This document shows, piece after piece, positions 20,560-49,800 of a stretch of 64,000 nt of DNA. Made by a program: the position numbers and the translations under genes. Each line of letters begins with the position of its first letter. Within the stretch, counting starts at the first letter, position 1. The notes under the pieces were generated by a model that was not told the origin of the DNA, searched no databases, and worked only from the letters and a program-made list of their open reading frames with translations. The stretch spans positions 291,958,001 through 292,022,000 of the forward strand of contig OZ024743.1 in NCBI GenBank assembly GCA_964016885.1, given 5' to 3'. Origin of the DNA: Eledone cirrhosa. Lineage: Eukaryota.

Positions 20560-20770
20560 TATATATATAATATATATTATATATAATATATATAATATAT
20601 ATAATATATAATATATATAATATATATAATATATATAATATATATAATATATTATATATTATATATATAATATACAATATATTATATATATATAATATAA
20701 AATACATACATATATATATATATGTATTTTATATTATATATATAATATATTGTATATTATATATATATAC

Positions 20771-20862
<92 letters not shown>
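20560..20862. repeat. AT-only minisatellite (TATATAATA)n with an internal inversion, then (TA)n
   Basis: Direct sequence. Confidence 0.9.
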
Positions 20863-20865
<3 letters not shown>

Positions 20866-21600
20866 TAATTTAATATATCAACTAACATAAGCGCACAGAT
20901 GCACGCCCATGCCAGCAAATACACAGGTTATGTCATAGTACCCAGGTGGTTCAATGCAGGAGAATGCAGAACAATAATATAAAGGACGTAAAATAAGAAA
21001 ATATTTTTTTTTTTAAATTTTTAAAAAAATTTTTTACTTACTTAAATTTTCACTCCAACTAATTAGTTTCTGCAATGGGATAAAGACAGTTACGTAATCC
21101 AACTGTCGAGAATTCATTGCGTCATCAGGGAGTCTATTCTCAGTTAAGTCTCCAGGCAATGCGCGGACACTGGCGGCTCATATAAAAATAATAATAATTC
21201 GGTAGATCGAACAGCTTGCGAGGACTGGATTCTATGTACCGAAATTCTCACTGCTTCAAGTCAAATGGCCGATTCTAAAGAATCAATCACGTGACACAGA
21301 GGCTAGTTAGAAGGAATGGGATGGGAAGATGACTGACGCCTACTAACACCCCAAAAAAAATTTTTTTAGAAGTGGTTTTGACAAGTTTGCTCGACAAATC
21401 AGTGATTTGGAGATAAATATAGATAATTTAATATATCAACTAACATAAGCGCACAGATGCACGCCCATGCCAGCAAATACACAGGTTATGTCATAGTACC
21501 CAGGTGGTTCAATGCAGGAGAATGCAGAACAATAATATAAAGGACGTAAAATAAGAAAATATTTTTTTTTAAAAATTTTTAAAAAAATTTTTTACTTACT
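20861..21600 (-). repeat. Inverted arm (~1.3 units) of the 558-bp HHR satellite
   Basis: Reverse complement of the unit. Contains one HHR at 21052-21133 (-). Confidence 0.97.
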
Positions 21601-21640
21601 TTAAAAATTTTTTACTTACTTTAAACATTTTTGCTTACTT

Positions 21641-24600
21641 TAAAAATTTTTTTAAAAAAATATTTTCTTATTTTACGTCCTTTATATTATTGTTCTGCAT
21701 TCTCCTGCATTGAACCACCTGGGTACTATGACATAACCTGTGTATTTGCTGGCATGGGCGTGCATCTGTGCGCTTATGTTAGTTGATATATTAAATTATC
21801 TATATTTATCTCCAAATCACTGATTTGTCGAGCAAACTTGTCAAAACCACTTCTAAAAAAATTTTTTTTGGGGTGTTAGTAGGCGTCAGTCATCTTCCCA
21901 TCCCATTCCTTCTAACTAGCCTCTGTGTCACGTGATTGATTCTTTAGAATCGGCCATTTGACTTGAAGCAGTGAGAATTTCGGTACATAGAATCCAGTCC
22001 TCGCAAGCTGTTCGATCTACCGAATTATTATTATTTTTATATGAGCCGCCAGTGTCCGCGCATTGCCTGGAGACTTAACTGAGAATAGACTCCCTGATGA
22101 CGCAATGAATTCTCGACAGTTGGATTACGTAACTGTCTTTATCCCATTGCAGAAACTAATTAGTTGGAGTGAAAATTTAAGTAAGTAAAACATTTTTTTT
22201 TTAATTTTTTTTAAAAAATATTTTCTTATTTTACGTCCTTTATATTATTGTTCTGCATTCTCCTGCATTGAACCACCTGGGTACTATGACATAACCTGTG
22301 TATTTGCTGGCATGGGCGTGCATCTATGCGCTTATGTTAGTTGATATATTAAATTATCTATATTTATCTCCAAATCACTGATTTGTCGAGCAAACTTGTC
22401 AAAACCACTTCTAAAAAAATTTTTTTTGGGGTGTTAGTAGGCGTCAGTCATCTTACCATCCCATTCCTTCTAACTAGCCTCTGTGTCACGTGATTGATTC
22501 TTTAGAATCGGCCATTTGACTTGAAGCAGTGAGAATTTCGGTACATAGAATCCAGTCCTCGCAAGCTGTTCGATCTACCGAATTATTATTAATTTTATAT
22601 GAGCCGCCAGTGTCCGCGCATTGCCTGGAGACTTAACTGAGAATAGACTCCCTGATGACGCAATGAATTCTCGACAGTTGGATTACGTAACTGTCTTTAT
22701 CCCATTGCAGAAACTAATTAGTTGGAGTGAAAATTTAAGTAAGTAAAACATTTTTTTTTTAATTTTTTTAAAAAAATATTTTCTTATTTTACGTCCTTTA
22801 TATTATTGTTCTGCATTCTCCTGCATTGAACCACCTGGGTACTATGACATAACCTGTGTATTTGCTGGCATGGGCGTGCATCTATGCGCTTATGTTAGTT
22901 GATATATTAAATTATCTATATTTATCTCCAAATCACTGATTTGTCGAGCAAACTTGTCAAAACCACTTCTAAAAAAATTTTTTTTGGGGTGTTAGTAGGC
23001 GTCAGTCATCTTACCATCCCATTCCTTCTAACTAGCCTCTGTGTCACGTGATTGATTCTTTAGAATCGGCCATTTGACTTAAAGCAGTGAGAATTTCGGT
23101 ACATAGAATCCAGTCCTCGCAAGCTGTTCGATCTGCCGAATTATTATTATTTTTATATGAGCCGCCAGTGTCCGCGCATTGCCTGGAGACTTAACTGAGA
23201 ATAGACTCCCTGATGACGCAATGAATTCTCGACAGTTGGATTACGTAACTGTCTTTATCCCATTGCAGAAACTAATTAGTTGGAGTGAAAATTTAAGTAA
23301 GTAAAAAATTTTTTAAAAAATTTTTTTAAAAAAATATTTTCTTATTTTACGTCCTTTATATTATTGTTCTGCATTCTCCTGCATTGAACCACCTGGGTAC
23401 TATGACATAACCTGTGTATTTGCTGGCATGGGCGTGCATCTGTGCGCTTATGTTAGTTGATATATTAAATTATCTATATTTATCTCCAAATCACTGATTT
23501 GTCGAGCAAACTTGTCAAAACCACTTCTAAAAAAATTTTTTTTGGGGTGTTAGTAGGCGTCAGTCATCTTCCCATCCCATTCCTTCTAACTAGCCTCTGT
23601 GTCACGTGATTGATTCTTTAGAATCGGCCATTTGACTTGAAGCAGTGAGAATTTCGGTACATAGAATCCAGTCCTCGCAAGCTGTTCGATCTACCGAATT
23701 ATTATTATTTTTATATGAGCCGCCAGTGTCCGCGCATTGCCTGGAGACTTAACTGAGAATAGACTCCCTGATGACGCAATGAATTCTCGACAGTTGGATT
23801 ACGTAACTGTCTTTATCCCATTGCAGAAACTAATTAGTTGGAGTGAAAATTTAAGTAAAAAATTTTTTTAAAGATTTTTTTAAAAAAATATTTTCTTATT
23901 TTACGTCCTTTATATTATTGTTCTGCATTCTCCTGCATTGAACCACCTGGGTACTATGACATAACCTGTGTATTTGCTGGCATGGGCGTGCATCTGTGCG
24001 CTTATGTTAGTTGATATATTAAATTATCTATATTTATCTCCAAATCACTGATTTGTCGAGCAAACTTGTCAAAACCACTTCTAAAAAAATTTTTTTGGGG
24101 GTGTTAGTAGGCGTCAGTCATCTTACCATCCCATTCCTTCTAACTAGCCTCTGTGTCACGTGATTGATTCTTTAGAATCGGCCATTTGACTTGAAGCAGT
24201 GAGAATTTCGGAACATAGAATCCAGTCCTCGCAAGCTGTTCGATCTACCGAATTATTATTATTTTTATATGAGCCGCCAGTGTCCGCGCATTGCCTGGAG
24301 ACTTAACTGAGAATAGACTCCCTGATGACGCAATGAATTCTCGACAGTTGGATTACGTAACTGTCTTTATCCCATTGCAGAAACTAATTAGTTGGAGTGA
24401 AAATTTAAGTAAGTAAAACATTTTTTTAAAAATTTTTTTTAAAAAATATTTTCTTATTTTACGTCCTTTATATTATTGTTCTGCATTCTCCTGCATTGAA
24501 CCACCTGGGTACTATGACATAACCTGTGTATTTGCTGGCATGGGCGTGCATCTATGCGCTTATGTTAGTTGATATATTAAATTATCTATATTTATCTCCA

Positions 24601-27600
24601 AATCACTGATTTGTCGAGCAAACTTGTCAAAACCACTTCTAAAAAAATTTTTTTTGGGTTGTTAGTAGGCGTCAGTCATCTTACCATCCCATTCCTTCTA
24701 ACTACCCTCTGTGTCACGTGATTGATTCTTTAGAATCGGCCATTTGACTTGAAGCAGTGAGAATTTCGGTACATAGAATCCAGTCCTCGCAAGCTGTTCG
24801 ATCTACCGAATTATTATTATTTTTATATGAGCCGCCAGTGTCCGCGCATTGCCTGGAGACTTAACTGAGAATAGACTCCCTGATGACGCAATGAATTCTC
24901 GACAGTTGGATTACGTAACTGTCTTTATCCCATTGCAGAAACTAATTAGTTGGAGTGAAAATTTAAGTAAGTAAAACATTTTTTTTTAAATTTTTTTAAA
25001 AAAATATTTTCTTATTTTACGTCCTTTATATTATTGTTCTGCATTCTCCTGCATTGAACCACCTGGGTACTATGACATAACCTGTGTATTTGCTGGCATG
25101 GGCGTGCATCTGTGCGCTTATGTTAGTTGATATATTAAATTATCTATATTTATCTCCAAATCACTGATTTGTCGAGCAAACTTGTCAAAACCACTTCTAA
25201 AAAAATTTTTTTGGGGGTGTTAGTAGGCGTCAGTCATCTTACCATCCCATTCCTTCTAACTAACCTCTGTGTCACGTGATTGATTCTTTAGAATCGGCCA
25301 TTTGACTTGAAGCAGTGAGAATTTCGGTACATAGAATCCAGTCCTCGCAAGCTGTTCGATCTACCGAATTATTATTATTTTTATATGAGCCGCCAGTGTC
25401 CGCGCATTGCCTGGAGACTTAACTGAGAATAGACTCCCTGATGACGCAATGAATTCTCGACAGTTGGATTACGTAACTGTCTTTATCCCATTGCAGAAAC
25501 TAATTAGTTGGAGTGAAAATTTAAGTAAGTAAAACATTTTTTTAAACATTTTTTTTAAAAAATATTTTCTTATTTTACGTCCTTTATATTATTGTTCTGC
25601 ATTCTCCTGCATTGAACCACCTGGGTACTATGACATAACCTGTGTATTTGCTGGCATGGGCGTGCATCTATGCGCTTATGTTAGTTGATATATTAAATTA
25701 TCTATATTTATCTCCAAATCACTGATTTGTCGAGCAAACTTGTCAAAACCACTTCTAAAAAAATTTTTTTGGGGGTGTTAGTAGGCGTCAGTCATCTTAC
25801 CATCCCATTCCTTCTAACTAGCCTCTGTGTCACGTGATTGATTCTTTAGAATCGGCCATTTGACTTGAAGCAGTGAGAATTTCGGTACATAGAATCCAGT
25901 CCTCGCAAGCTGTTCGATCTACCGAATTATTATTATTTTTATATGAGCCGCCAGTGTCCGCGCATTGCCTGGAGACTTAACTGAGAATAGACTCCCTGAT
26001 GACGCAATGAATTCTCGACAGTTGGATTACGTAACTGTCTTTATCCCATTGCAGAAACTAATTAGTTGGAGTGAAAATTTAAGTAAGTAAAACATTTTTT
26101 TTTAAATTTTTTTTAAAAAATATTTTCTTATTTTACGTCCTTTATATTATTGTTCTGCATTCTCCTGCATTGAACCACCTGTGTACTATGACATAACCTG
26201 TGTATTTGCTGGCATGGGCGTGCATCTATGCGCTTATGTTAGTTGATATATTAAATTATCTATATTTATCTCCAAATCACTGATTTGTCGAGCAAACTTG
26301 TCAAAACCACTTCTAAAAAAATTTCTTTTGGGGTGTTAGTAGGCGTCAGTCATCTTACCATCCCATTCCTTCTAACTAGCCTCTGTGTCACGTGATTGAT
26401 TCTTTAGAATCGGCCATTTGACTTAAAGCAGTGAGAATTTCGGTACATAGAATCCAGTCCTCGCAAGCTGTTCGATCTACCGAATTATTATTATTTTTAT
26501 ATGAGCCGCCAGTGTCCGCGCATTGCCTGGAGACTTAACTGAGAATAGACTCCCTGATGACGCAATGAATTCTCGACAGTTGGATTACGTAACTGTCTTT
26601 ATCCCATTGCAGAAACTAATTAGTTGGAGTGAAAATTTAAGTAAGTAAAAAATTTTTTTTAAAATTTTTTTAAAAAAATATTTTCTTATTTTACGTCCTT
26701 TATATTATTGTTCTGCATTCTCCTGCATTGAACCACCTGGGTACTATGACATAACCTGTGTATTTGCTGGCATGGGCGTGCATCTGTGCGCTTATGTTAG
26801 TTGATATATTAAATTATCTATATTTATCTCCAAATCACTGATTTGTCGAGCAAACTTGTCAAAACCACTTCTAAAAAAATTTTTTTTGGGGTGTTAGTAG
26901 GCGTCAGTCATCTTCCCATCCCATTCCTTCTAACTAGCCTCTGTGTCACGTGATTGATTCTTTAGAATCGGCCATTTGACTTGAAGCAGTGAGAATTTCG
27001 GTACATAGAATCCAGTCCTCGCAAGCTGTTCGATCTACCGAATTATTATTATTTTTATATGAGCCGCCAGTGTCCGCGCATTGCCTGGAGACTTAACTGA
27101 GAATAGACTCCCTGATGACGCAATGAATTCTCGACAGTTGGATTACGTAACTGTCTTTATCCCATTGCAGAAACTAATTAGTTGGAGTGAAAATTTAAGT
27201 AAAAAATTTTTTTAAAGATTTTTTTAAAAAAATATTTTCTTATTTTACGTCCTTTATATTATTGTTCTGCATTCTCCTGCATTGAACCACCTGGGTACTA
27301 TGACATAACCTGTGTATTTGCTGGCATGGGCGTGCATCTGTGCGCTTATGTTAGTTGATATATTAAATTATCTATATTTATCTCCAAATCACTGATTTGT
27401 CGAGCAAACTTGTCAAAACCACCTCTAAAAAAATTTTTTTTGGGGTGTTAGTAGGCGTCAGTCATCTTACCATCCCATTCCTTCTAACTAGCCTCTGTGT
27501 CAGGTGATCGATTCTTTAGAATCGGCCATTTGACTTGAAGCAGTGAGAATTTCGGAACATAGAATCCAGTCCTCGCAAGCTGTTCGATCTACCGAATTAT

Positions 27601-30600
27601 TATTATTTTTATATGAGCCGCCAGTGTCCGCGCATTGCCTGGAGACTTAACTGAGAATAGACTCCCTGATGACGCAATGAATTCTCGACAGTTGGATTAC
27701 GTAACTGTCTTTATCCCATTGCAGAAACTAATTAGTTGGAGTGAAAATTTAAGTAAGTAAAACATTTTTTTAAAAATTTTTTTTAAAAAATATTTTCTTA
27801 TTTTACGTCCTTTATATTATTGTTCTGCATTCTCCTGCATTGAACCACCTGGGTACTATGACATAACCTGTGTATTTGCTGGCATGGGCGTGCATCTATG
27901 CGCTTATGTTAGTTGATATATTAAATTATCTATATTTATCTCCAAATCACTGATTTGTCGAGCAAACTTGTCAAAACCACTTCTAAAAAAATTTTTTTTG
28001 GGTTGTTAGTAGGCGTCAGTCATCTTACCATCCCATTCCTTCTAACTAGCCTCTGTGTCACGTGATTGATTCTTTAGAATCGGCCATTTGACTTGAAGCA
28101 GTGAGAATTTCGGTACATAGAATCCAGTCCTCGCAAGCTGTTCGATCTACCGAATTATTATTATTTTTATATGAGCCGCCAGTGTCCGCGCATTGCCTGG
28201 AGACTTAACTGAGAATAGACTCCCTGATGACGCAATGAATTCTCGACAGTTGGATTACGTAACTGTCTTTATCCCATTGCAGAAACTAATTAGTTGGAGT
28301 GAAAATTTAAGTAAGTAAAACATTTTTTTTTAAATTTTTTTAAAAAAATATTTTCTTATTTTACGTCCTTTATATTATTGTTCTGCATTCTCCTGCATTG
28401 AACCACCTGGGTACTATGACATAACCTGTGTATTTGCTGGCATGGGCGTGCATCTGTGCGCTTATGTTAGTTGATATATTAAATTATCTATATTTATCTC
28501 CAAATCACTGATTTGTCGAGCAAACTTGTCAAAACCACTTCTAAAAAAATTTTTTTGGGGGTGTTAGTAGGCGTCAGTCATCTTACCATCCCATTCCTTC
28601 TAACTAACCTCTGTGTCACGTGATTGATTCTTTAGAATCGGCCATTTGACTTGAAGCAGTGAGAATTTCGGTACATAGAATCCAGTCCTCGCAAGCTGTT
28701 CGATCTACCGAATTATTATTATTTTTATATGAGCCGCCAGTGTCCGCGCATTGCCTGGAGACTTAACTGAGAATAGACTCCCTGATGACGCAATGAATTC
28801 TCGACAGTTGGATTACGTAACTGTCTTTATCCCATTGCAGAAACTAATTAGTTGGAGTGAAAATTTAAGTAAGTAAAACATTTTTTTAAACATTTTTTTT
28901 AAAAAATATTTTCTTATTTTACGTCCTTTATATTATTGTTCTGCATTCTCCTGCATTGAACCACCTGGGTACTATGACATAACCTGTGTATTTGCTGGCA
29001 TGGGCGTGCATCTATGCGCTTATGTTAGTTGATATATTAAATTATCTATATTTATCTCCAAATCACTGATTTGTCGAGCAAACTTGTCAAAACCACTTCT
29101 AAAAAAATTTTTTTGGGGGTGTTAGTAGGCGTCAGTCATCTTACCATCCCATTCCTTCTAACTAGCCTCTGTGTCACGTGATTGATTCTTTAGAATCGGC
29201 CATTTGACTTGAAGCAGTGAGAATTTCGGTACATAGAATCCAGTCCTCGCAAGCTGTTCGATCTACCGAATTATTATTATTTTTATATGAGCCGCCAGTG
29301 TCCGCGCATTGCCTGGAGACTTAACTGAGAATAGACTCCCTGATGACGCAATGAATTCTCGACAGTTGGATTACGTAACTGTCTTTATCCCATTGCAGAA
29401 ACTAATTAGTTGGAGTGAAAATTTAAGTAAGTAAAACATTTTTTTTTAAATTTTTTTTAAAAAATATTTTCTTATTTTACGTCCTTTATATTATTGTTCT
29501 GCATTCTCCTGCATTGAACCACCTGTGTACTATGACATAACCTGTGTATTTGCTGGCATGGGCGTGCATCTATGCGCTTATGTTAGTTGATATATTAAAT
29601 TATCTATATTTATCTCCAAATCACTGATTTGTCGAGCAAACTTGTCAAAACCACTTCTAAAAAAATTTCTTTTGGGGTGTTAGTAGGCGTCAGTCATCTT
29701 ACCATCCCATTCCTTCTAACTAGCCTCTGTGTCACGTGATTGATTCTTTAGAATCGGCCATTTGACTTAAAGCAGTGAGAATTTCGGTACATAGAATCCA
29801 GTCCTCGCAAGCTGTTCGATCTACCGAATTATTATTATTTTTATATGAGCCGCCAGTGTCCGCGCATTGCCTGGAGACTTAACTGAGAATAGACTCCCTG
29901 ATGACGCAATGAATTCTCGACAGTTGGATTACGTAACTGTCTTTATCCCATTGCAGAAACTAATTAGTTGGAGTGAAAATTTAAGTAAGTAAAAAATTTT
30001 TTTTAAAATTTTTTTAAAAAAATATTTTCTTATTTTACGTCCTTTATATTATTGTTCTGCATTCTCCTGCATTGAACCACCTGGGTACTATGACATAACC
30101 TGTGTATTTGCTGGCATGGGCGTGCATCTGTGCGCTTATGTTAGTTGATATATTAAATTATCTATATTTATCTCCAAATCACTGATTTGTCGAGCAAACT
30201 TGTCAAAACCACTTCTAAAAAAATTTTTTTTGGGGTGTTAGTAGGCGTCAGTCATCTTCCCATCCCATTCCTTCTAACTAGCCTCTGTGTCACGTGATTG
30301 ATTCTTTAGAATCGGCCATTTGACTTGAAGCAGTGAGAATTTCGGTACATAGAATCCAGTCCTCGCAAGCTGTTCGATCTACCGAATTATTATTATTTTT
30401 ATATGAGCCGCCAGTGTCCGCGCATTGCCTGGAGACTTAACTGAGAATAGACTCCCTGATGACGCAATGAATTCTCGACAGTTGGATTACGTAACTGTCT
30501 TTATCCCATTGCAGAAACTAATTAGTTGGAGTGAAAATTTAAGTAAAAAATTTTTTTAAAGATTTTTTTAAAAAAATATTTTCTTATTTTACGTCCTTTA

Positions 30601-33600
30601 TATTATTGTTCTGCATTCTCCTGCATTGAACCACCTGGGTACTATGACATAACCTGTGTATTTGCTGGCATGGGCGTGCATCTGTGCGCTTATGTTAGTT
30701 GATATATTAAATTATCTATATTTATCTCCAAATCACTGATTTGTCGAGCAAACTTGTCAAAACCACCTCTAAAAAAATTTTTTTTGGGGTGTTAGTAGGC
30801 GTCAGTCATCTTACCATCCCATTCCTTCTAACTAGCCTCTGTGTCAGGTGATCGATTCTTTAGAATCGGCCATTTGACTTGAAGCAGTGAGAATTTCGGA
30901 ACATAGAATCCAGTCCTCGCAAGCTGTTCGATCTACCGAATTATTATTATTTTTATATGAGCCGCCAGTGTCCGCGCATTGCCTGGAGACTTAACTGAGA
31001 ATAGACTCCCTGATGACGCAATGAATTCTCGACAGTTGGATTACGTAACTGTCTTTATCCCATTGCAGAAACTAATTAGTTGGAGTGAAAATTTAAGTAA
31101 GTAAAACATTTTTTTAAAAATTTTTTTTAAAAAATATTTTCTTATTTTACGTCCTTTATATTATTGTTCTGCATTCTCCTGCATTGAACCACCTGGGTAC
31201 TATGACATAACCTGTGTATTTGCTGGCATGGGCGTGCATCTATGCGCTTATGTTAGTTGATATATTAAATTATCTATATTTATCTCCAAATCACTGATTT
31301 GTCGAGCAAACTTGTCAAAACCACTTCTAAAAAAAATTTTTTTGGGGTGTTAGTAGGCGTCAGTCATCTTACCATCCCATTCCTTCTAACTAGCCTCTGT
31401 GTCACGTGATTGATTCTTTAGAATCGGCCATTTGACTTGAAGCAGTGAGAATTTCGGTACATAGAATCCAGTCCTCGCAAGCTGTTCGATCTACCGAATT
31501 ATTATTATTTTTATATGAGCCGCCAGTGTCCGCGCATTGCCTGGAGACTTAACTGAGAATAGACTCCCTGATGACGCAATGAATTCTCGACAGTTGGATT
31601 ACGTAACTGTCATTATCCCATTGCAGAAACTAATTAGTTGGAGTGAAAATTTAAGTAAGTAAAAAATTTTTTTAAAAATTTTTTTAAAAAAATATTTTCT
31701 TATTTTACGTCCTTTATATTATTGTTCTGCATTCTCCTGCATTGAACCACCTGGGTACTATGACATAACCTGTGTATTTGCTGGCATGGGCGTGCATCTA
31801 TGCGCTTATGTTAGTTGATATATTAAATTATCTATATTTATCTCCAAATCACTGATTTGTCGAGCAAACTTGTCAAAACCACTTCTAAAAAAATTTTTTT
31901 TGGGGTGTTAGTAGGCGTCAGTCATCTTACCATCCCATTCCTTCTAACTAGCCTCTGTGTCACGTGATTGATTCTTTAGAATCGGCCATTTGACTTAAAG
32001 CAGTGAGAATTTCGGTACATAGAATCCAGTCCTCGCAAGCTGTTCGATCTACCGAATTATTATTATTTTTATATGAGCCGCCAGTGTCCGCGCATTGCCT
32101 GGAGACTTAACTGAGAATAGACTCCCTGATGACGCAATGAATTCTCGACAGTTGGATTACGTAACTGTCTTTATCCCATTGCAGAAACTAATTAGTTGGA
32201 GTGAAAATTTAAGTAAAAAATTTTTTTAAAGATTTTTTTAAAAAAATATTTTCTTATTTTACGTCCTTTATATTATTGTTCTGCATTCTCCTGCATTGAA
32301 CCACCTGGGTACTATGACATAACCTGTGTATTTGCTGGCATGGGCGTGCATCTGTGCGCTTATGTTAGTTGATATATTAAATTATCTATATTTATCTCCA
32401 AATCACTGATTTGTCGAGCAAACTTGTCAAAACCACTTCTAAAAAAATTTTTTTGGGGTTGTTAGTAGGCGTCAGTCATCTTACCATCCCATTCCTTCTA
32501 ACTAGCCTCTGTGTCACGTGATTGATTCTTTAGAATCGGCCATTTGACTTGAAGCAGTGAGAATTTCGGTACATAGAATCCAGTCCTCGCAAGCTGTTCG
32601 ATCTACCGAATTATTATTATTTTTATATGAGCCGCCAGTGTCCGCGCATTGCCTGGAGACTTAACTGAGAATAGACTCCCTGATGACGCAATGAATTCTC
32701 GACAGTTGGATTACGTAACTGTCTTTATCCCATTGCAGAAACTAATTAGTTGGAGTGAAAATTTAAGTAAGTAAAACATTTTTTTTTTAATTTTTTTAAA
32801 AAAATATTTTCTTATTTTACGTCCTTTATATTATTGTTCTGCATTCTCCTGCATTGAACCACCTGGGTACTATGACATAACCTGTGTATTTGCTGGCATG
32901 GGCGTGCATCTGTGCGCTTATGTTAGTTGATATATTAAATTATCTATATTTATCTCCAAATCACTGATTTGTCGAGCAAACTTGTCAAAACCACTTCTAA
33001 AAAAATTTTTTTGGGGGTGTTAGTAGGCGTCAGTCATCTTACCATCCCATTCCTTCTAACTAGCCTCTGTGTCACGTGATTGATTCTTTAGAATCGGCCA
33101 TTTGACTTGAAGCAGTGAGAATTTCGGTACATAGAATCCAGTCCTCGCAAGCTGTTCGATCTACCGAATTATTATTATTTTTATATGAGCCGCCAGTGTC
33201 CGCGCATTGCCTGGAGACTTAACTGAGAATAGACTCCCTGATGACGCAATGAATTCTCGACAGTTGGATTACGTAACTGTCTTTATCCCATTGCAGAAAC
33301 TAATTAGTTGGAGTGAAAATTTAAGTAAGTAAAACATTTTTTTAAACATTTTTTTTAAAAAATATTTTCTTATTTTACGTCCTTTATATTATTGTTCTGC
33401 ATTCTCCTGCATTGAACCACCTGGGTACTATGACATAACCTGTGTATTTGCTGGCATGGGCGTGCATCTGTGCGCTTATGTTAGTTGATATATTAAATTA
33501 TCTATATTTATCTCCAAATCACTGATTTGTCGAGCAAACTTGTCAAAACCACTTCTAAAAAAATTTTTTTTGGGGTGTTAGTAGGCGTCAGTCATCTTCC

Positions 33601-36600
33601 CATCCCATTCCTTCTAACTAGCCTCTGTGTCACGTGATTGATTCTTTAGAATCGGCCATTTGACTTGAAGCAGTGAGAATTTCGGTACATAGAATCCAGT
33701 CCTCGCAAGCTGTTCGATCTACCGAATTATTATTATTTTTATATGAGCCGCCAGTGTCCGCGCATTGCCTGGAGACTTAACTGAGAATAGACTCCCTGAT
33801 GACGCAATGAATTCTCGACAGTTGGATTACGTAACTGTCTTTATCCCATTGCAGAAACTAATTAGTTGGAGTGAAAATTTAAGTAAGTAAAACATTTTTT
33901 TAAACATTTTTTTAAAAAAATATTTTCTTATTTTACGTCCTTTATATTATTGTTCTGCATTCTCCTGCATTGAACCACCTGGGTACTATGACATAACCTG
34001 TGTATTTGCTGGCATGGGCGTGCATCTATGCGCTTATGTTAGTTGATATATTAAATTATCTATATTTATCTCCAAATCACTGATTTGTCGAGCAAACTTG
34101 TCAAAACCACTTCTAAAAAAATTTTTTTTGGGGTGTTAGTAGGCGTCAGTCATCTTACCATCCCATTCCTTCTAACTAGCCTCTGTGTCACGTGATTGAT
34201 TCTTTAGAATCGGCCATTTGACTTGAAGCAGTGAGAATTTCGGTACATAGAATCCAGTCCTCGCAAGCTGTTCGATCTACCGAATTATTATTATTTTTAT
34301 ATGAGCCGCCAGTGTCCGCGCATTGCCTGGAGACTTAACTGAGAATAGACTCCCTGATGACGCAATGAATTCTCGACAGTTGGATTACGTAACTGTCTTT
34401 ATCCCATTGCAGAAACTAATTAGTTGGAGTGAAAATTTAAGTAAGTAAAACATTTTTTTTTAAATTTTTTTAAAAAAATATTTTCTTATTTTACGTCCTT
34501 TATATTATTGTTCTGCATTCTCCTGCATTGAACCACCTGGGTACTATGACATAACCTGTGTATTTGCTGGCATGGGCGTGCATCTATGCGCTTATGTTAG
34601 TTGATATATTAAATTATCTATATTTATCTCCAAATCACTGATTTGTCGAGCAAACTTGTCAAAACCACTTCTAAAAAAATTTTTTTTGGGGTGTTAGTAG
34701 GCGTCAGTCATCTTACCATCCCATTCCTTCTAACTAGCCTCTGTGTCACGTGATTGATTCTTTAGAATCGGCCATTTGACTTAAAGCAGTGAGAATTTCG
34801 GTACATAGAATCCAGTCCTCGCAAGCTGTTCGATCTACCGAATTATTATTATTTTTATATGAGCCGCCAGTGTCCGCGCATTGCCTGGAGACTTAACTGA
34901 GAATAGACTCCCTGATGACGCAATGAATTCTCGACAGTTGGATTACGTAACTGTCTTTATCCCATTGCAGAAACTAATTAGTTGGAGTGAAAATTTAAGT
35001 AAAAAATTTTTTTAAAGATTTTTTTAAAAAAATATTTTCTTATTTTACGTCCTTTATATTATTGTTCTGCATTCTCCTGCATTGAACCACCTGGGTACTA
35101 TGACATAACCTGTGTATTTGCTGGCATGGGCGTGCATCTATGCGCTTATGTTAGTTGATATATTAAATTATCTATATTTATCTCCAAATCACTGATTTGT
35201 CGAGCAAACTTGTCAAAACCACTTCTAAAAAAAATTTTTTTGGGGTGTTAGTAGGCGTCAGTCATCTTACCATCCCATTCCTTCTAACTAGCCTCTGTGT
35301 CACGTGATTGATTCTTTAGAATCGGCCATTTGACTTGAAGCAGTGAGAATTTCGGTACATAGAATCCAGTCCTCGCAAGCTGTTCGATCTACCGAATTAT
35401 TATTATTTTTATATGAGCCGCCAGTGTCCGCGCATTGCCTGGAGACTTAACTGAGAATAGACTCCCTGATGACGCAATGAATTCTCGACAGTTGGATTAC
35501 GTAACTGTCTTTATCCCATTGCAGAAACTAATTAGTTGGAGTGAAAATTTAAGTAAGTAAAAAATTTTTTTAAAAATTTTTTTAAAAAAATATTTTCTTA
35601 TTTTACGTCCTTTATATTATTGTTCTGCATTCTCCTGCATTGAACCACCTGGGTACTATGACATAACCTGTGTATTTGCTGGCATGGGCGTGCATCTGTG
35701 CGCTTATGTTAGTTGATATATTAAATTATCTATATTTATCTCCAAATCACTGATTTGTCGAGCAAACTTGTCAAAACCACTTCTAAAAAAAATTTTTTTG
35801 GGGTGTTAGTAGGCGTCAGTCATCTTCCCATCCCATTCCTTCTAACTAGCCTCTGTGTCACGTGATTGATTCTTTAGAATCGGCCATTTGACTTGAAGCA
35901 GTGAGAATTTCGGTACATAGAATCCAGTCCTCGCAAGCTGTTCGATCTACCGAATTATTATTATTTTTATATGAGCCGCCAGTGTCCGCGCATTGCCTGG
36001 AGACTTAACTGAGAATAGACTCCCTGATGACGCAATGAATTCTCGACAGTTGGATTACGTAACTGTCTTTATCCCATTGCAGAAACTAATTAGTTGGAGT
36101 GAAAATTTAAGTAAAAAATTTTTTTAAAGATTTATTTAAAAAAATATTTTCTTATTTTACGTCCTTTATATTATTGTTCTGCATTCTCCTGCATTGAACC
36201 ACCTGGGTACTATGACATAACCTGTGTATTTGCTGGCATGGGCGTGCATCTGTGCGCTTATGTTAGTTGATATATTAAATTATCTATATTTATCTCCAAA
36301 TCACTGATTTGTCGAGCAAACTTGTCAAAACCACTTCTAAAAAAATTTTTTTTGGGGTGTTAGTAGGCGTCAGTCATCTTACCATCCCATTCCTTCTAAC
36401 TAGCCTCTGTGTCACGTGATTGATTCTTTACAATCGGCCATTTGACTTGAAGCAGTGAGAATTTCGGAACATAGAATCCAGTCCTCGCAAGCTGTTCGAT
36501 CTACCGAATTATTATTATTTTTATATGAGCCGCCAGTGTCCGCGCATTGCCTGGAGACTTAACTGAGAATAGACTCCCTGATGACGCAATGAATTCTCGA

Positions 36601-39600
36601 CAGTTGGATTACGTAACTGTCTTTATCCCATTGCAGAAACTAATTAGTTGGAGTGAAAATTTAAGTAAGTAAAACATTTTTTTAAAAATTTTTTTAAAAA
36701 AATATTTTCTTATTTTACGTCCTTTATATTATTGTTCTGCATTCTCCTGCATTGAACCACCTGGGTACTATGACATAACCTGTGTATTTGCTGGCATGGG
36801 CGTGCATCTATGCGCTTATGTTAGTTGATATATTAAATTATCTATATTTATCTCCAAATCACTGATTTGTCGAGCAAACTTGTCAAAACCACTTCTAAAA
36901 AAATTTTTTTTGGGGTGTTAGTAGGCGTCAGTCATCTTACCATCCCATTCCTTCTAACTAGCCTCTGTGTCACGTGATTGATTCTTTAGAATCGGCCATT
37001 TGACTTGAAGCAGTGAGAATTTCGGTACATAGAATCCTGTCCTCGCAAGCTGTTCGATCTACCGAATTATTATTATTTTTATATGAGCCGCCAGTGTCCG
37101 CGCATTGCCTGGAGACTTAACTGAGAATAGACTCCCTGATGACGCAATGAATTCTCGACAGTTGGATTACGTAACTGTCTTTATCCCATTGCAGAAACTA
37201 ATTAGTTGGAGTGAAAATTTAAGTAAGTAAAACATTTTTTTTTAAATTTTTTTAAAAAAATATTTTCTTATTTTACGTCCTTTATATTATTGTTCTGCAT
37301 TCTCCTGCATTGAACCACCTGGGTACTATGACATAACCTGTGTATTTGCTGGCATGGGCGTGCATCTATGCGCTTATGTTAGTTGATATATTAAATTATC
37401 TATATTTATCTCCAAATCACTGATTTGTCGAGCAAACTTGTCAAAACCACTTCTAAAAAAATTTTTTTTGGGGTGTTAGTAGGCGTCAGTCATCTTACCA
37501 TCCCATTCCTTCTAACTAGCCTCTGTGTCACGTGATTGATTCTTTAGAATCGGCCATTTGACTTAAAGCAGTGAGAATTTCGGTACATAGAATCCAGTCC
37601 TCGCAAGCTGTTCGATCTACCGAATTATTATTATTTTTATATGAGCCGCCAGTGTCCGCGCATTGCCTGGAGACTTAACTGAGAATAGACTCCCTGATGA
37701 CGCAATGAATTCTCGACAGTTGGATTACGTAACTGTCTTTATCCCATTGCAGAAACTAATTAGTTGGAGTGAAAATTTAAGTAAGTAAAAAATTTTTTAA
37801 AAAATTTTTTTAAAAAAATATTTTCTTATTTTACGTCCTTTATATTATTGTTCTGCATTTTCCTGCATTGAACCACCTGGGTACTATGACATAACCTGTG
37901 TATTTGCTGGCATGGGCGTGCATCTGTGCGCTTATGTTAGTTGATATATTAAATTATCTATATTTATCTCCAAATCACTGATTTGTCGAGCAAACTTGTC
38001 AAAACCACTTCTAAAAAAATTTTTGTTGGGGTGTTAGTAGGCGTCAGTCATCTTACCATCCCATTCCTTCTAACTAGCCTCTGTGTCACGTGATTGATTC
38101 TTTAGAATCGGCCATTTGACTTGAAGCAGTGAGAATTTCGGTACATAGAATCCAGTCCTCGCAAGCTGTTCGATCTACCGAATTATTATTATTTTTATAT
38201 GAGCCGCCAGTGTCCGCGCATTGCCTGGAGACTTAACTGAGAATAGACTCCCTGATGACGCAATGAATTCTCGACAGTTGGATTACGTAACTGTCTTTAT
38301 CCCATTGCAGAAACTAATTAGTTGGAGTGAAAATTTAAGTAAGTAAAACATTTTTTAAAAAATTTTTTTTAAAAAATATTTTCTTATTTTACGTCCTTTA
38401 TATTATTGTTCTGCATTCTCCTGCATTGAACCACCTGGGTACTATGACATAACCTGTGTATTTGCTGGCATGGGCGTGCATCTATGCGCTTATGTTAGTT
38501 GATATATTAAATTATCTATATTTATCTCCAAATCACTGATTTGTCGAGCAAACTTGTCAAAACCACTTCTAAAAAAATTTGTTTTGGGGTGTTAGTAGGC
38601 GTCAGTCATCTTACCATCCCATTCCTTCTAACTAGCCTCTGTGTCACGTGATTGATTCTTTAGAATCGGCCATTTGACTTGAAGCAGTGAGAATTTCGGT
38701 ACATAGAATCCTGTCCTCGCAAGCTGTTCGATCTACCGAATTATTATTATTTTTATATGAGCCGCCAGTGTCCGCGCATTGCCTGGAGACTTAACTGAGA
38801 ATAGACTCCCTGATGACGCAATGAATTCTCGACAGTTGGATTACGTAACTGTCTTTATCCCATTGCAGAAACTAATTAGTTGGAGTGAAAATTTAAGTAA
38901 GTAAAACATTTTTTTTTAAATTTTTTTAAAAAAATATTTTCTTATTTTACGTCCTTTATATTATTGTTCTGCATTCTCCTGCATTGAACCACCTGGGTAC
39001 TATGACATAACCTGTGTATTTGCTGGCATGGGCGTGCATCTATGCGCTTATGTTAGTTGATATATTAAATTATCTATATTTATCTCCAAATCACTGATTT
39101 GTCGAGCAAACTTGTCAAAACCACTTCTAAAAAAATTTTTTTTGGGGTGTTAGTAGGCGTCAGTCATCTTACCATCCCATTCCTTCTAACTAGCCTCTGT
39201 GTCACGTGATTGATTCTTTAGAATCGGCCATTTGACTTGAAGCAGTGAGAATTTCGGTACATAGAATCCAGTCCTCGCAAGCTGTTCGATCTACCGAATT
39301 ATTATTATTTTTATATGAGCCGCCAGTGTCCGCGCATTGCCTGGAGACTTAACTGAGAATAGACTCCCTGATGACGCAATGAATTCTCGACAGTTGGATT
39401 ACGTAACTGTCTTTATCCCATTGCAGAAACTAATTAGTTGGAGTGAAAATTTAAGTAAGTAAAAAATTTTTTTAAAAATTTTTTTAAAAAAATATTTTCT
39501 TATTTTACGTCCTTTATATTATTGTTCTGCATTCTCCTGCATTGAACCACCTGGGTACTATGACATAACCTGTGTATTTGCTGGCATGGGCGTGCATCTG

Positions 39601-42600
39601 TGCGCTTATGTTAGTTGATATATTAAATTATCTATATTTATCTCCAAATCACTGATTTGTCGAGCAAACTTGTCAAAACCACTTCTAAAAAAATTTTTTT
39701 GGGGGTGTTAGTAGGCGTCAGTCATCTTACCATCCCATTCCTTCTAACTAGCCTCTGTGTCACGTGATTGATTCTTTAGAATCGGCCATTTGACTTGAAG
39801 CAGTGAGAATTTCGGTACATAGAATCCAGTCCTCGCAAGCTGTTCGATCTACCGAATTATTATTATTTTTATATGAGCCGCCAGTGTCCGCGCATTGCCT
39901 GGAGACTTAACTGAGAATAGACTCCCTGATGACGCAATGAATTCTCGACAGTTGGATTACGTAACTGTCTTTATCCCATTGCAGAAACTAATTAGTTGGA
40001 GTGAAAATTTAAGTAAGTAAAACATTTTTTTAAACATTTTTTTTAAAAAATATTTTCTTATTTTACGTCCTTTATATTATTGTTCTGCATTCTCCTGCAT
40101 TGAACCACCTGGGTACTATGACATAACCTGTGTATTTGCTGGCATGGGCGTGCATCTATGCGCTTATGTTAGTTGATATATTAAATTATCTATATTTATC
40201 TCCAAATCACTGATTTGTCGAGCAAACTTGTCAAAACCACTTCTAAAAAAATTTTTTTGGGGTGTTAGTAGGCGTCAGTCATCTTACCATCCCATTCCTT
40301 CTAACTAGCCTCTGTGTCACGTGATTGATTCTTTAGAATCGGCCATTTGACTTGAAGCAGTGAGAATTTCGGTACATAGAATCCAGTCCTCGCAAGCTGT
40401 TCGATCTACCGAATTATTATTATTTTTATATGAGCCGCCAGTGTCCGCGCATTGCCTGGAGACTTAACTGAGAATAGACTCCCTGATGACGCAATGAATT
40501 CTCGACAGTTGGATTACGTAACTGTCTTTATCCCATTGCAGAAACTAATTAGTTGGAGTGAAAATTTAAGTAAGTAAAACATTTTTTTTTAAATTTTTTA
40601 AAAAAAATATTTTCTTATTTTACGTCCTTTATATTATTGTTCTGCATTCTCCTGCATTGAACCACCTGGGTACTATGACATAACCTGTGTATTTGCTGGC
40701 ATGGGCGTGCATCTATGCGCTTATGTTAGTTGATATATTAAATTATCTATATTTATCTCCAAATCACTGATTTGTCGAGCAAACTTGTCAAAACCACTTC
40801 TAAAAAAATTTTTTTTGGGGTGTTAGTAGGCGTCAGTCATCTTACCATCCCATTCCTTCTAACTAGCCTCTGTGTCACGTGATTGATTCTTTAGAATCGG
40901 CCATTTGACTTAAAGCAGTGAGAATTTCGGTACATAGAATCCAGTCCTCGCAAGCTGTTCGATCTACCGAATTATTATTATTTTTATATGAGCCGCCAGT
41001 GTCCGCGCATTGCCTGGAGACTTAACTGAGAATAGACTCCCTGATGACGCAATGAATTCTCGACAGTTGGATTACGTAACTGTCTTTATCCCATTGCAGA
41101 AACTAATTAGTTGGAGTGAAAATTTAAGTAAAAAATTTTTTTAAAGATTTTTTTAAAAAAATATTTTCTTATTTTACGTCCTTTATATTATTGTTCTGCA
41201 TTCTCCTGCATTGAACCACCTGGGTACTATGACATAACCTGTGTATTTGCTGGCATGGGCGTGCATCTATGCGCTTATGTTAGTTGATATATTAAATTAT
41301 CTATATTTATCTCCAAATCACTGATTTGTCGAGCAAACTTGTCAAAACCACTTCTAAAAAAAATTTTTTTGGGGTGTTAGTAGGCGTCAGTCATCTTACC
41401 ATCCCATTCCTTCTAACTAGCCTCTGTGTCACGTGATTGATTCTTTAGAATCGGCCATTTGACTTGAAGCAGTGAGAATTTCGGTACATAGAATCCAGTC
41501 CTCGCAAGCTGTTCGATCTACCGAATTATTATTATTTTTATATGAGCCGCCAGTGTCCGCGCATTGCCTGGAGACTTAACTGAGAATAGACTCCCTGATG
41601 ACGCAATGAATTCTCGACAGTTGGATTACGTAACTGTCTTTATCCCATTGCAGAAACTAATTAGTTGGAGTGAAAATTTAAGTAAGTAAAAAATTTTTTT
41701 AAAAATTTTTTTAAAAAAATATTTTCTTATTTTACGTCCTTTATATTATTGTTCTGCATTCTCCTGCATTGAACCACCTGGGTACTATGACATAACCTGT
41801 GTATTTGCTGGCATGGGCGTGCATCTGTGCGCTTATGTTAGTTGATATATTAAATTATCTATATTTATCTCCAAATCACTGATTTGTCGAGCAAACTTGT
41901 CAAAACCACTTCTAAAAAAATTTTTTTTGGGGTGTTAGTAGGCGTCAGTCATCTTCCCATCCCATTCCTTCTAACTAGCCTCTGTGTCACGTGATTGATT
42001 CTTTAGAATCGGCCATTTGACTTGAAGCAGTGAGAATTTCGGTACATAGAATCCAGTCCTCGCAAGCTGTTCGATCTACCGAATTATTATTATTTTTATA
42101 TGAGCCGCCAGTGTCCGCGCATTGCCTGGAGACTTAACTGAGAATAGACTCCCTGATGACGCAATGAATTCTCGACAGTTGGATTACGTAACTGTCTTTA
42201 TCCCATTGCAGAAACTAATTAGTTGGAGTGAAAATTTAAGTAAAAAATTTTTTTAAAGATTTATTTAAAAAAATATTTTCTTATTTTACGTCCTTTATAT
42301 TATTGTTCTGCATTCTCCTGCATTGAACCACCTGGGTACTATGACATAACCTGTGTATTTGCTGGCATGGGCGTGCATCTGTGCGCTTATGTTAGTTGAT
42401 ATATTAAATTATCTATATTTATCTCCAAATCACTGATTTGTCGAGCAAACTTGTCAAAACCACTTCTAAAAAAATTTTTTTTGGGGTGTTAGTAGGCGTC
42501 AGTCATCTTACCATCCCATTCCTTCTAACTAGCCTCTGTGTCACGTGATTGATTCTTTACAATCGGCCATTTGACTTGAAGCAGTGAGAATTTCGGAACA

Positions 42601-45600
42601 TAGAATCCAGTCCTCGCAAGCTGTTCGATCTACCGAATTATTATTATTTTTATATGAGCCGCCAGTGTCCGCGCATTGCCTGGAGACTTAACTGAGAATA
42701 GACTCCCTGATGACGCAATGAATTCTCGACAGTTGGATTACGTAACTGTCTTTATCCCATTGCAGAAACTAATTAGTTGGAGTGAAAATTTAAGTAAGTA
42801 AAACATTTTTTTAAAAATTTTTTTTAAAAAATATTTTCTTATTTTACGTCCTTTATATTATTGTTCTGCATTCTCCTGCATTGAACCACCTGGGTACTAT
42901 GACATAACCTGTGTATTTGCTGGCATGGGCGTGCATCTATGCGCTTATGTTAGTTGATATATTAAATTATCTATATTTATCTCCAAATCACTGATTTGTC
43001 GAGCAAACTTGTCAAAACCACTTCTAAAAAAATTTTTTTTGGGGTGTTAGTAGGCGTCAGTCATCTTACCATCCCATTCCTTCTAACTAGCCTCTGTGTC
43101 ACGTGATTGATTCTTTAGAATCGGCCATTTGACTTGAAGCAGTGAGAATTTCGGTACATAGAATCCTGTCCTCGCAAGCTGTTCGATCTACCGAATTATT
43201 ATTATTTTTATATGAGCCGCCAGTGTCCGCGCATTGCCTGGAGACTTAACTGAGAATAGACTCCCTGATGACGCAATGAATTCTCGACAGTTGGATTACG
43301 TAACTGTCTTTATCCCATTGCAGAAACTAATTAGTTGGAGTGAAAATTTAAGTAAGTAAAACATTTTTTTTTAAATTTTTTTAAAAAAATATTTTCTTAT
43401 TTTACGTCCTTTATATTATTGTTCTGCATTCTCCTGCATTGAACCACCTGGGTACTATGACATAACCTGTGTATTTGCTGGCATGGGCGTGCATCTATGC
43501 GCTTATGTTAGTTGATATATTAAATTATCTATATTTATCTCCAAATCACTGATTTGTCGAGCAAACTTGTCAAAACCACTTCTAAAAAAATTTTTTTTGG
43601 GGTGTTAGTAGGCGTCAGTCATCTTACCATCCCATTCCTTCTAACTAGCCTCTGTGTCACGTGATTGATTCTTTAGAATCGGCCATTTGACTTAAAGCAG
43701 TGAGAATTTCGGTACATAGAATCCAGTCCTCGCAAGCTGTTCGATCTACCGAATTATTATTATTTTTATATGAGCCGCCAGTGTCCGCGCATTGCCTGGA
43801 GACTTAACTGAGAATAGACTCCCTGATGACGCAATGAATTCTCGACAGTTGGATTACGTAACTGTCTTTATCCCATTGCAGAAACTAATTAGTTGGAGTG
43901 AAAATTTAAGTAAGTAAAAAATTTTTTAAAAAATTTTTTTAAAAAAATATTTTCTTATTTTACGTCCTTTATATTATTGTTCTGCATTTTCCTGCATTGA
44001 ACCACCTGGGTACTATGACATAACCTGTGTATTTGCTGGCATGGGCGTGCATCTGTGCGCTTATGTTAGTTGATATATTAAATTATCTATATTTATCTCC
44101 AAATCACTGATTTGTCGAGCAAACTTGTCAAAACCACTTCTAAAAAAATTTTTTTTGGGGTGTTAGTAGGCGTCAGTCATCTTACCATCCCATTCCTTCT
44201 AACTAGCCTCTGTGTCACGTGATTGATTCTTTAGAATCGGCCATTTGACTTGAAGCAGTGAGAATTTCGGTACATAGAATCCAGTCCTCGCAAGCTGTTC
44301 GATCTACCGAATTATTATTATTTTTATATGAGCCGCCAGTGTCCGCGCATTGCCTGGAGACTTAACTGAGAATAGACTCCCTGAAGACGCAATGAATTCT
44401 CGACAGTTGGATTACGTAACTGTCTTTATCCCATTGCAGAAACTAATTAGTTGGAGTGAAAATTTAAGTAAGTAAAACATTTTTTTAAAAATTTTTTTTA
44501 AAAAATATTTTCTTATTTTACGTCCTTTATATTATTGTTCTGCATTCTCCTGCATTGAACCACCTGGGTACTATGACATAACCTGTGTATTTGCTGGCAT
44601 GGGCGTGCATCTATGCGCTTATGTTAGTTGATATATTAAATTATCTATATTTATCTCCAAATCACTGATTTGTCGAGCAAACTTGTCAAAACCACTTCTA
44701 AAAAAATTTTTTTTGGGGTGTTAGTAGGCGTCAGTCATCTTACCATCCCATTCCTTCTAACTAGCCTCTGTGTCACGTGATTGATTCTTTAGAATCGGCC
44801 ATTTGACTTAAAGCAGTGAGAATTTCGGTACATAGAATCCAGTCCTCGCAAGCTGTTCGATCTACCGAATTATTATTATTTTTATATGAGCCGCCAGTGT
44901 CCGCGCATTGCCTGGAGACTTAACTGAGAATAGACTCCCTGATGACGCAATGAATTCTCGACAGTTGGATTACGTAACTGTCTTTATCCCATTGCAGAAA
45001 CTAATTAGTTGGAGTGAAAATTTAAGTAAGTAAAAAATTTTTTAAAAAATTTTTTTAAAAAAATATTTTCTTATTTTACGTCCTTTATATTATTGTTCTG
45101 CATTTTCCTGCATTGAACCACCTGGGTACTATGACATAACCTGTGTATTTGCTGGCATGGGCGTGCATCTGTGCGCTTATGTTAGTTGATATATTAAATT
45201 ATCTATATTTATCTCCAAATCACTGATTTGTCGAGCAAACTTGTCAAAACCACTTCTAAAAAAATTTTTTTTGGGGTGTTAGTAGGCGTCAGTCATCTTA
45301 CCATCCCATTCCTTCTAACTAGCCTCTGTGTCACGTGATTGATTCTTTAGAATCGGCCATTTGACTTGAAGCAGTGAGAATTTCGGTACATAGAATCCAG
45401 TCCTCGCAAGCTGTTCGATCTACCGAATTATTATTATTTTTATATGAGCCGCCAGTGTCCGCGCATTGCCTGGAGACTTAACTGAGAATAGACTCCCTGA
45501 AGACGCAATGAATTCTCGACAGTTGGATTACGTAACTGTCTTTATCCCATTGCAGAAACTAATTAGTTGGAGTGAAAATTTAAGTAAGTAAAACATTTTT

Positions 45601-48600: not shown

Positions 48601-49553
48601 CTTCTAAAAAAATTTTTTTGGGGGTGTTAGTAGGCGTCAGTCATCTTACCATCCCATTCCTTCTAACTAGCCTCTGTGTCACGTGATTGATTCTTTAGAA
48701 TCGGCCATTTGACTTGAAGCAGTGAGAATTTCGGTACATAGAATCCAGTCCTCGCAAGCTGTTCGATCTACCGAATTATTATTATTTTTATATGAGCCGC
48801 CAGTGTCCGCGCATTGCCTGGAGACTTAACTGAGAATAGACTCCCTGATGACGCAATGAATTCTCGACAGTTGGATTACGTAACTGTCTTTATCCCATTG
48901 CAGAAACTAATTAGTTGGAGTGAAAATTTAAGTAAGTAAAAAATTTTTTTAAAAATTTTTTTAAAAAAATATTTTCTTATTTTACGTCCTTTATATTATT
49001 GTTCTGCATTCTCCTGCATTGAACCACCTGGGTACTATGACATAACCTGTGTATTTGCTGGCATGGGCGTGCATCTGTGCGCTTATGTTAGTTGATATAT
49101 TAAATTATCTATATTTATCTCCAAATCACTGATTTGTCGAGCAAACTTGTCAAAACCACTTCTAAAAAAATTTTTTTTGGGGTGTTAGTAGGCGTCAGTC
49201 ATCTTACCATCCCATTCCTTCTAACTAGCCTCTGTGTCACGTGATTGATTCTTTAGAATCGGCCATTTGACTTGAAGCAGTGAGAATTTCGGTACATAGA
49301 ATCCAGTCCTCGCAAGCTGTTCGATCTACCGAATTATTATTATTTTTATATGAGCCGCCAGTGTCCGCGCATTGCCTGGAGACTTAACTGAGAATAGACT
49401 CCCTGATGACGCAATGAATTCTCGACAGTTGGATTACGTAACTGTCTTTATCCCATTGCAGAAACTAATTAGTTGGAGTGAAAATTTAAGTAAGTAAAAC
49501 ATTTTTTAAAAAATTTTTTTAAAAAAATATTTTCTTATTTTACGTCCTTTATA
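21641..49553 (+). repeat. Tandem array of 50 near-identical ~558-bp units (eight 554-bp, one 557-bp), each with an HHR: retrozyme/pLTR-like satellite
   Basis: The landmark TATTTTCTTA falls at 21661, 22219, 22777, 23335, 23889 ... 49528. First CTGATGA at 22094, last at 49403 (49 intervals). Confidence 0.98.
22089..22170 (+). ncRNA. Type I HHR of the satellite unit (first of 50 + strand copies; last at 49398-49479)
   Basis: ACTCC-CTGATGA-C-GCAATG-aattctc-GACAGTT-ggattacgt-AACTGTC-tttatcc-CATTGC-A-GAAA-CTAA-TTAG-TT-GGAGT. Stem I 5 bp, bipartite stem II (6+7 bp), palindromic stem III, GUU triplet, predicted cut at 22165/22166. Confidence 0.88.
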
Positions 49554-49800
49554 TATAAATATATATATATATAATAAAGTTTTCTGAATTAGGCACATTA
49601 GGATTTATTTTATCGACATTAGGCTTTATTTTATCGACACCGTAAAGATGAACGGCAAAGATTTGAACACAGACCGTAAAGGGCCATAACTCTATGCATA
49701 TATATATGCAGAGGTTATATTTAATTTGTTGGGATTCAACAAACTTAAAATGTGTTAATAACTGATATAAAGCACTCAACAGTTAGTGGAGTAAATATAC

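Follow-up and report, generated by a model that had tools for sequence, protein, structure and literature searches.

Paired, fixed-end insertions of a non-LTR retrozyme family in Eledone cirrhosa and their ends relative to the predicted hammerhead cut

In the 3.0 Gb genome of Eledone cirrhosa, a tandem array is built of two arms that meet head to head a short distance 3' of a predicted hammerhead cut, which raises the question of whether its founder was copied from RNA that the ribozyme had already cleaved. The earlier note on this locus had read the junction in that way. We examined the window, the whole 64,000-nucleotide stretch analysed here (positions 291958001-292022000 of OZ024743.1), together with the ends of related insertions across the genome. 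We find that the junction in the window is an ordinary example of a family-wide pattern, and that its main interest lies in the mechanism of the family.

The array in the window and its unit

Units are 558 nt long and were numbered from the first base 3' of the predicted cut (GTT|GGAGT; u1). Mapping of the arms in the assembly bore out the head-to-head arrangement. The minus arm (20859..21601, minus strand; 743 nt, or 1.33 units) runs from its 5' end, u14 at 21601, through u558 and then from u1 to its 3' end, u198 at 20859 (site B, TATAT), where it abuts the left (TA)n target tract (20560..20858, no strand, delimited by TRF and the arm end). The plus arm (21639..49554, plus strand) starts in the A/T tract of the unit, crosses 50 cut sites and ends at u80 at 49554 (site A, TATAT), followed by a short right (TA)n target tract (49555..49574, no strand). 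The earlier note had placed the minus arm about 14 nt past the cut at 21600, and we measure 13 nt, with 21600 being u15; the plus arm, put about 25-30 nt past the cut at about 21641, begins at about 21639, about 31 nt from the cut. Because the A/T tract is self-complementary, the latter start is ambiguous, being u32 by one reference unit and u28 by another. The motif of about 20 nt that was described as reiterated about three times between the arms is also present, with TRF reporting period 20, 3.5 copies and 90% matches at 21583-21652. One of the copies is the minus arm's own start, and two extra copies of its first ~20 nt (~u14-u33; 21602..21638, minus strand), which are likely slippage products, each end at u14, the outer one carrying two substitutions. 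To the right of the array, small tandem repeats are found at 49595-49639 (21 nt, two copies) and 50896-51013 (33 nt, 3.6 copies).

A quasi-palindrome, u13-u66, encloses both arm ends; it forms a hairpin when folded as RNA and also as DNA (-10.6 kcal/mol for the latter), and the A/T tract alone could thus account for the ends here. At the 5' end of the minus arm, this hairpin region (~u14-u66) occupies 21549..21601 on the minus strand, as defined by an inverted self-match of u13-62 and by RNA and DNA folds. We also observe an intact hammerhead motif within the minus arm (21036..21149, minus strand; predicted cut 21057|21056, assigned from the cut position and the helices), which was absent from the earlier account. 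Contigs, as opposed to reads, of four sequencing runs over 20860-22300 gave no cover at 21595-21643, positions that were skipped as repeats.

Of the 49 full units in the array, eight are 554 nt long and one is 557 nt, the others being 558 nt, and their coding capacity is nil, with the longest ATG-started frame reaching 27 aa in the doubled unit on both strands. The first type I hammerhead of the plus arm spans 22073..22186 (plus strand), with the 5' strand of helix I at 22089-22093, the core from 22094 and the predicted cut at 22165|22166. Its layout comprises helix I, the core heptamer (exact in 48 of the 50 plus-arm copies), one bulged base, a long branched helix II, the GAAA core and a palindromic helix III. 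Across 16 variants of the same genome, 91% of the cells in helices I-III are paired, against 22-45% in slid controls, and helix II covaries, with double changes in 4/4 pairs; as the aligned sequences are related, and two of the 16 rows come from a more distant family, these figures are not a probability. The predicted cut falls after GUU, and this triplet, with the extra A before G12, presumably means that ribozyme activity may be low or slow. Compared with the PLE-type type I hammerhead as described in the available text of PMC4209133, the motif has the extra base between 9 and 10.1, the G10.1-C11.1 pair and the palindromic helix III, and deviates by an extra A before G12 and a U at position 17. 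The Rfam search gave no match at the gathering score in the window, and on one hammerhead two chance matches and no hammerhead match.

The 50 units of the array differ at 3.2 sites on average, blocks of six units are repeated, and the plus arm carries higher-order repeats and private alleles, A161 and C290 being the majority allele at 0/149 and 0/122 other loci, respectively. From these unit differences, repeated blocks and private alleles it follows that duplication at the DNA level built up the 28 kb. C290 is found in both arms at the junction, yet in only 8 of the 51 units scored, and this distribution suggests that the arms likely exchanged sequence. The junction, too, could have been reshaped by such exchange, and later slippage of DNA could be the source of the extra copies of about 20 nt. 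Further arrays of at least ten units occur at L112, L133 and L175, with a three-unit higher-order pattern at L112, indicating that local expansion is not unique to the window.

Dispersal, 3' ends and arm pairing in the family

Genome-wide, we found 3363 intact cut-spanning copies of the young subfamily, and 9313 with a shorter shared word. Exact 3' junctions with a TA run numbered 272 at u80 and 579 at u198, compared with 7 at an equally good control, TATAT at u180-184. In total, 160 regions were taken, 106 on contig C1 (all listed end matches), and 48 on C2 and 6 on C3 (u80 pattern only). We excluded the window itself together with a region of the old subfamily, a cut-off region and 33 pieces that were noise, merged fragments, one duplicate or old-subfamily sequence. 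Arms were placed by BLAST and reviewed by eye, whereby 30 arms were reset and 2 were added. The final sample, selected on u80 and u198 3' ends, comprises 259 arms in 158 loci besides the window, with a median arm length of 612 nt.

We observed that 100/159 insertions are head-to-head. In 95 of these pairs an arm ending at u80 (A) is joined to one ending at u198 (B), one pair is A+A, none is B+B, and four have one untyped or cut-off arm. A+B is therefore the arrangement in 95/96 typed pairs, and in 60/60 on C1, where both end types were sampled. The window array likewise joins a u80-ended arm to a u198-ended arm, and its insertion has the family's standard architecture. That the satellite was seeded by retrotransposition, as had been claimed, is upheld by the fixed 3' ends in (TA)n genome-wide, the variable 5' truncation and the paired arms, and we consider this origin well supported and hardly in doubt. 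The insertions display the features of PLE insertions, namely fixed internal 3' ends, 5' truncation, an inverted partner and a microsatellite target, as well as those of non-LTR retrozymes, namely non-coding tandem units each with a type I hammerhead motif and dispersed mono- to multimeric copies. The unit is a new non-LTR retrozyme family dispersed in (TA)n, a target in which a target-site duplication is not readable. The upstream flanks of solo arms yielded just the family and other repeats among the matches listed.

Unrelated sequence of 231 and 416 nt separates the arms at L050:2850-3080 and L093:1179-1594, respectively, as captured filler or later insertions, and at L160 a single head-to-head insertion is tandemly duplicated together with its flanks, with a period of about 2 kb. 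Older subfamilies of 70-80% identity (L080, L101, L102, L111, L117, L172, L208, L279) share the core with the young one, keep helix II compensated and apparently use the same pair of positions as 3' ends.

In LINE-1 twin priming, two target strands prime on one RNA, leaving an inverted 5' part and a join of short microhomology; the position of the second priming site varies, and each arm copies a different part of a linear RNA. In this family, unlike in L1, the two sites are fixed and each arm passes through repeated units. The near-strict u80/u198 pairing would fit two reverse transcription (RT) sites on one molecule that are unable to share a start. The insertions share with those of PLEs, in the portion of Craig et al. 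2021 (PMC8557442) available, the inverted 5'-truncated 5' copy, the extension present at one end only and the (TA)n targeting; they differ in the length of the extension (118 nt, u81-198, against 30-40 bp), in having no ORF and in an almost strict pairing of end types. With PAc (Poseidon, Anolis), as presented in the accessible sections of Frangieh et al. 2024 (PMC11167929), we list as shared the nicking and extension of both target strands, a pair of internal sites, downstream of the hammerhead, where RT starts, and a predicted protein dimer. The PAc start sites are described there as not homologous to the target and without a strand difference, whereas here both carry the target-matching TATAT and the two arms nearly always use different start sites. 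The metazoan non-LTR retrozymes of Cervera and de la Pena 2020 (PMC7229834) and Li et al. 2026 (bioRxiv 10.64898/2026.07.22.740005) have in common with the present family, as far as the available parts of these sources describe them, tandem repeats that lack coding capacity and contain a single type I hammerhead in each unit, short arrays that are dispersed, and PLEs in the same genome. Their units measure 170-400 nt and 51-972 bp, respectively, against 558 nt here, and those parts contain no insertion-end maps, head-to-head pairs or fixed priming sites. Our literature search, with most subscription journals outside it, returned no paper mapping retrozyme breakpoints relative to the cut or describing paired fixed priming sites.

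Upon examining the genome for an enzyme, we found ORFs of 938 and 1096 aa that combine a reverse transcriptase with a C-terminal GIY-YIG domain and have a CxxxCxxC linker. These long PLE ORFs (L271:4809-7622, minus strand; L273:1775-5062, plus strand) are Neptune-like by the description in the available text of PMC8557442. Further long Neptune-like ORFs are present at L272 and L274-L277; L276 and L286 are themselves head-to-head pairs, and several loci have other hammerhead-like motifs nearby. The unit was not found as the terminal repeat of an autonomous PLE in 50 GIY-YIG loci (30 short, 20 long), with 150/10596 candidates scored, and two of the 50 have an older unit copy as a separate neighbour. 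A copy 1.9 kb behind the L279 ORF was rejected as the repeat of such a partner, being a separate insertion between simple repeats. A trans-acting Penelope-like RT/GIY-YIG protein is the likely enzyme.

5' ends relative to the predicted cut

Next, we investigated where the 5' ends of the arms fall relative to the cut. Across u58-554 the background is 0.95 ends per kb traversed (177 ends), compared with 3.3 in u555-u3 (10 ends), 3.1 in u4-21 (25 ends) and 2.7 in u22-57 (47 ends). The near-cut zone, u555-u57, holds 82/259 family ends in about 13% of the exposure, which exceeds chance, and in the 57 nt that follow the cut the enrichment is approximately 3-fold; 47 of these 82 ends sit in the A/T tract, whose end positions are imprecise and were partly assigned by eye. 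There is a step at the cut, with 33 ends in u1-21 against 6 in u538-558 (P=1.5e-5), and among arms that had already passed at least one cut, 51/211 end in u1-57 (P=4e-9). A uniform distribution of breakpoints along the unit is thereby ruled out; for the window itself, the A/T tract may be explanation enough. The remaining 177/259 ends fall outside the near-cut zone, and 425/432 passes read through the cut. Both ends are near the cut in 17 of the 100 other head-to-head pairs, against 10.9 expected if the ends were independent, and neither is in 51/100, which indicates that inversion does not need the cut.

Ends exactly at u1 were observed in 7/259 sample arms, an enrichment of approximately 10-fold (P=3e-4, allowing a 3-nt window). 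Genome-wide, with cut-end patterns that demanded two non-matching upstream bases, 15 such ends were found at 13 loci, 3-4 of them with 2-4 nt of microhomology, against 3363 intact copies and an expectation of about 1.4-1.7 ends per position; taken together, several u1 calls have 1-4 nt of microhomology. One base upstream (u558/u1), 18 of 19 matches are real ends, the T often coming from the target or the partner, and at u556 three of four are. At two loci, L230/L231 (C13) and L234/L235 (C25), u1-80 and u1-198 form zero-spacer u1|u1 palindromes, and L221, L233 and L247 are u1-80 plus u1-198 insertions, 80+198 nt long, with 1-2 nt between the arms or a start at u2. Since the unit offers no microhomology at the u1|u1 joins, we infer that blunt joining of two run-off cDNAs is their simplest reading. 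Arms that start at the cut and hold no intact site inside are present at L221, L230, L233, L234 and L247, and these insertions are the best candidates for copies of self-cleaved RNA; the window arms have neither property. Roughly half of the arms that end exactly at u1 had already passed through a cut, and no excess of first-pass stops at u1 was seen among them. Symmetric junctions elsewhere in the unit were considered as nicked circles and dropped, as several sit on small palindromes.

A second sharp 5' stop lies at u488 (22095 in the window), at the edge of helix I where the hammerhead core begins and at a distance of 70 nt from the cut. It accounts for 5/259 arms, and genome-wide 14/14 matches are real arm ends (L291-L304), so that sharp ends can arise away from the cut; perhaps the reverse transcriptase pauses there at a helix I formed with a second molecule. 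Additionally, several junctions contain fillers made of reiterated u1-u57 pieces, up to about 490 nt long (L127:6284-6774, L244:1504-1609, L124), and the filler of L244 restarts at u1 twice.

The claim that the hammerhead is active thus gains support at the family level, from the exact u1 ends and the u1|u1 junctions, whereas the window junction by itself does not demonstrate cutting. Judged from the genomic ends, ribozyme cleavage in vivo somewhere in the cycle of the family is likely. A minority of genomic ends fall on the cut here, while the PAc study, in its available text (PMC11167929), describes no RNA reads ending at the cut.

Template and insertion mechanism

Outside the A/T tracts, divergence is 0.34% within an arm, 0.31% between paired arms and 2.02% between loci. 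Locus-specific variants run through all units of both arms (L171, L150), and only 2 minority alleles are common to both arms against 247 confined to one arm, a count that includes end artefacts. Furthermore, crossings of the cut are of exact length in 407/407 anchored cases. The shared haplotype and the exact crossings point to one monomer sequence from which both primers read over and over; a circle is the simplest such template, and the template was probably a circular monomer RNA. A transcript of a young homogeneous array is a possible template as well, and a linear transcript would also give one haplotype. Tandem cDNA has been proposed to be copied from circRNA (PMC7229834; bioRxiv 10.64898/2026.07.22.740005, in the parts available), and the circle model, as given in the accessible text of PMC7229834, requires two cleavages and a ligation.

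The best explanation, in which we place moderate confidence, is twin target-primed reverse transcription that used a single, likely circular, monomer and was followed by local expansion at the DNA level. Reverse transcription would be primed by both strands of a cut (TA)n tract and would proceed in opposite directions along a single monomer RNA, probably a circle, from u80 for one strand and from u198 for the other; each reverse transcriptase would keep rolling past the sealed cut site up to the point where it stops. Stops would occur all along the unit, approximately 3-fold more commonly in u1-57 and 10-fold exactly at u1, a position at which part of the templates had likely been cleaved, and joining of the two cDNA ends would follow, by microhomology or bluntly. 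In the window, both cDNAs would have come to an end within the A/T hairpin immediately 3' of the cut; from u14, the cDNA begun at u198 likely underwent two backward slips of about 20 nt and then may have annealed to the other cDNA through the self-complementary tract, with the plus arm growing later to 50 units by DNA-level duplication. This explanation builds on the observed architecture, fixed ends, shared haplotype, end distribution and higher-order repeats, to which it would add the circularity, the enzyme, cleavage in vivo and slippage at the cDNA stage. More tentatively, at slightly less than even chances, a PLE protein dimer could load one ribozyme-derived circular RNA at two fixed, non-interchangeable sites, with simultaneous rolling-circle copying from both ends of the cut target.

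The reading of the earlier note, in which the window founder was copied from RNA with a self-cleaved 5' end and the cDNAs reached that end, underwent trimming or jumps and became joined, agrees with the sharp step in end density, with the exact u1 ends and u1|u1 junctions at other loci, with reiterations reaching u1 at L239, L244 and L237, and with the excess of pairs having both ends near the cut. In the window, however, the arms end at u14 and about u32 rather than u1, both extra copies end at u14, and the minus arm crossed an intact site, as nearly all passes in the family did; this reading thus requires a partly cleaved multimer, cut at its 5'-most site and intact inside. Retrotransposition therefore stands as the origin of the founder, and that it ran off a cleaved end is possible but doubtful. 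Rather unlikely, in our judgement, is twin priming on an uncut linear multimer from a young homogeneous array, with the ribozyme as a passenger and the end clusters at u1, u7-17, the tract and u488 all being RT pauses at RNA or cDNA structure. The u488 hot spot and the u13-u66 hairpin are in keeping with it, as are eight of nine Xenopus retrozyme dimers without cleavage in vitro. For the Poseidon PLE, the available part of Frangieh et al. 2024 (PMC11167929) reports that cleavage was not required for insertion in vitro, with unprocessed RNA as the dominant substrate. Inherited unit-specific variants are nevertheless nearly absent, though loci differ by 2%, so that an uncut multimer would need a one-monomer bottleneck at almost every insertion; the zero-spacer u1|u1 joins lack microhomology in the unit, and a second, shorter A/T palindrome (u244-266) collects only 1.2 ends per kb, against the background of 0.95.

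It is improbable that the junction and its extra copies arose at the DNA level within an existing satellite, by fold-back, replication slippage in the quasi-palindrome or arm conversion, or through an assembly error. The DNA-level turnover of the array, the C290 allele common to both arms and private to this locus, and 7/83 other pairs that are near-symmetric, several at small palindromes, fit such an origin, and the junction is known here from the assembly alone. The outer ends, on the other hand, fall exactly on sites A and B in (TA)n, like those of 95/96 typed pairs, most pairs have unequal 5' ends, and similar reiterations occur at short, unexpanded insertions (L109, L127). A DNA-level origin may explain the extra copies but leaves the architecture unexplained.

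The mechanism of inverted and tandem PLE insertion and the action of hammerheads in vivo are described as open in the available text of PMC8557442 and PMC11167929. The present young family, with its hundreds of insertions, leaves countable footprints, namely the near-strict u80/u198 pairing, one haplotype per insertion and an end peak at the cut. These footprints bear on inverted and tandem PLE insertion, on hammerhead action in vivo and on the copying of circles into tandem cDNA, for which the shared haplotype per insertion provides genomic evidence bearing on the proposed step; they name exact sites for in vitro testing, and in the window a 28-kb satellite is seen growing from one retrozyme insertion. 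If the reading of a protein dimer on a circular RNA is true, one mechanism would underlie the inverted pLTRs of PLEs, their one-sided tail and the tandem arrays of retrozymes, and the palindromic insertions joined cut to cut would be fossils, left in the genome, of germline hammerhead cleavage.
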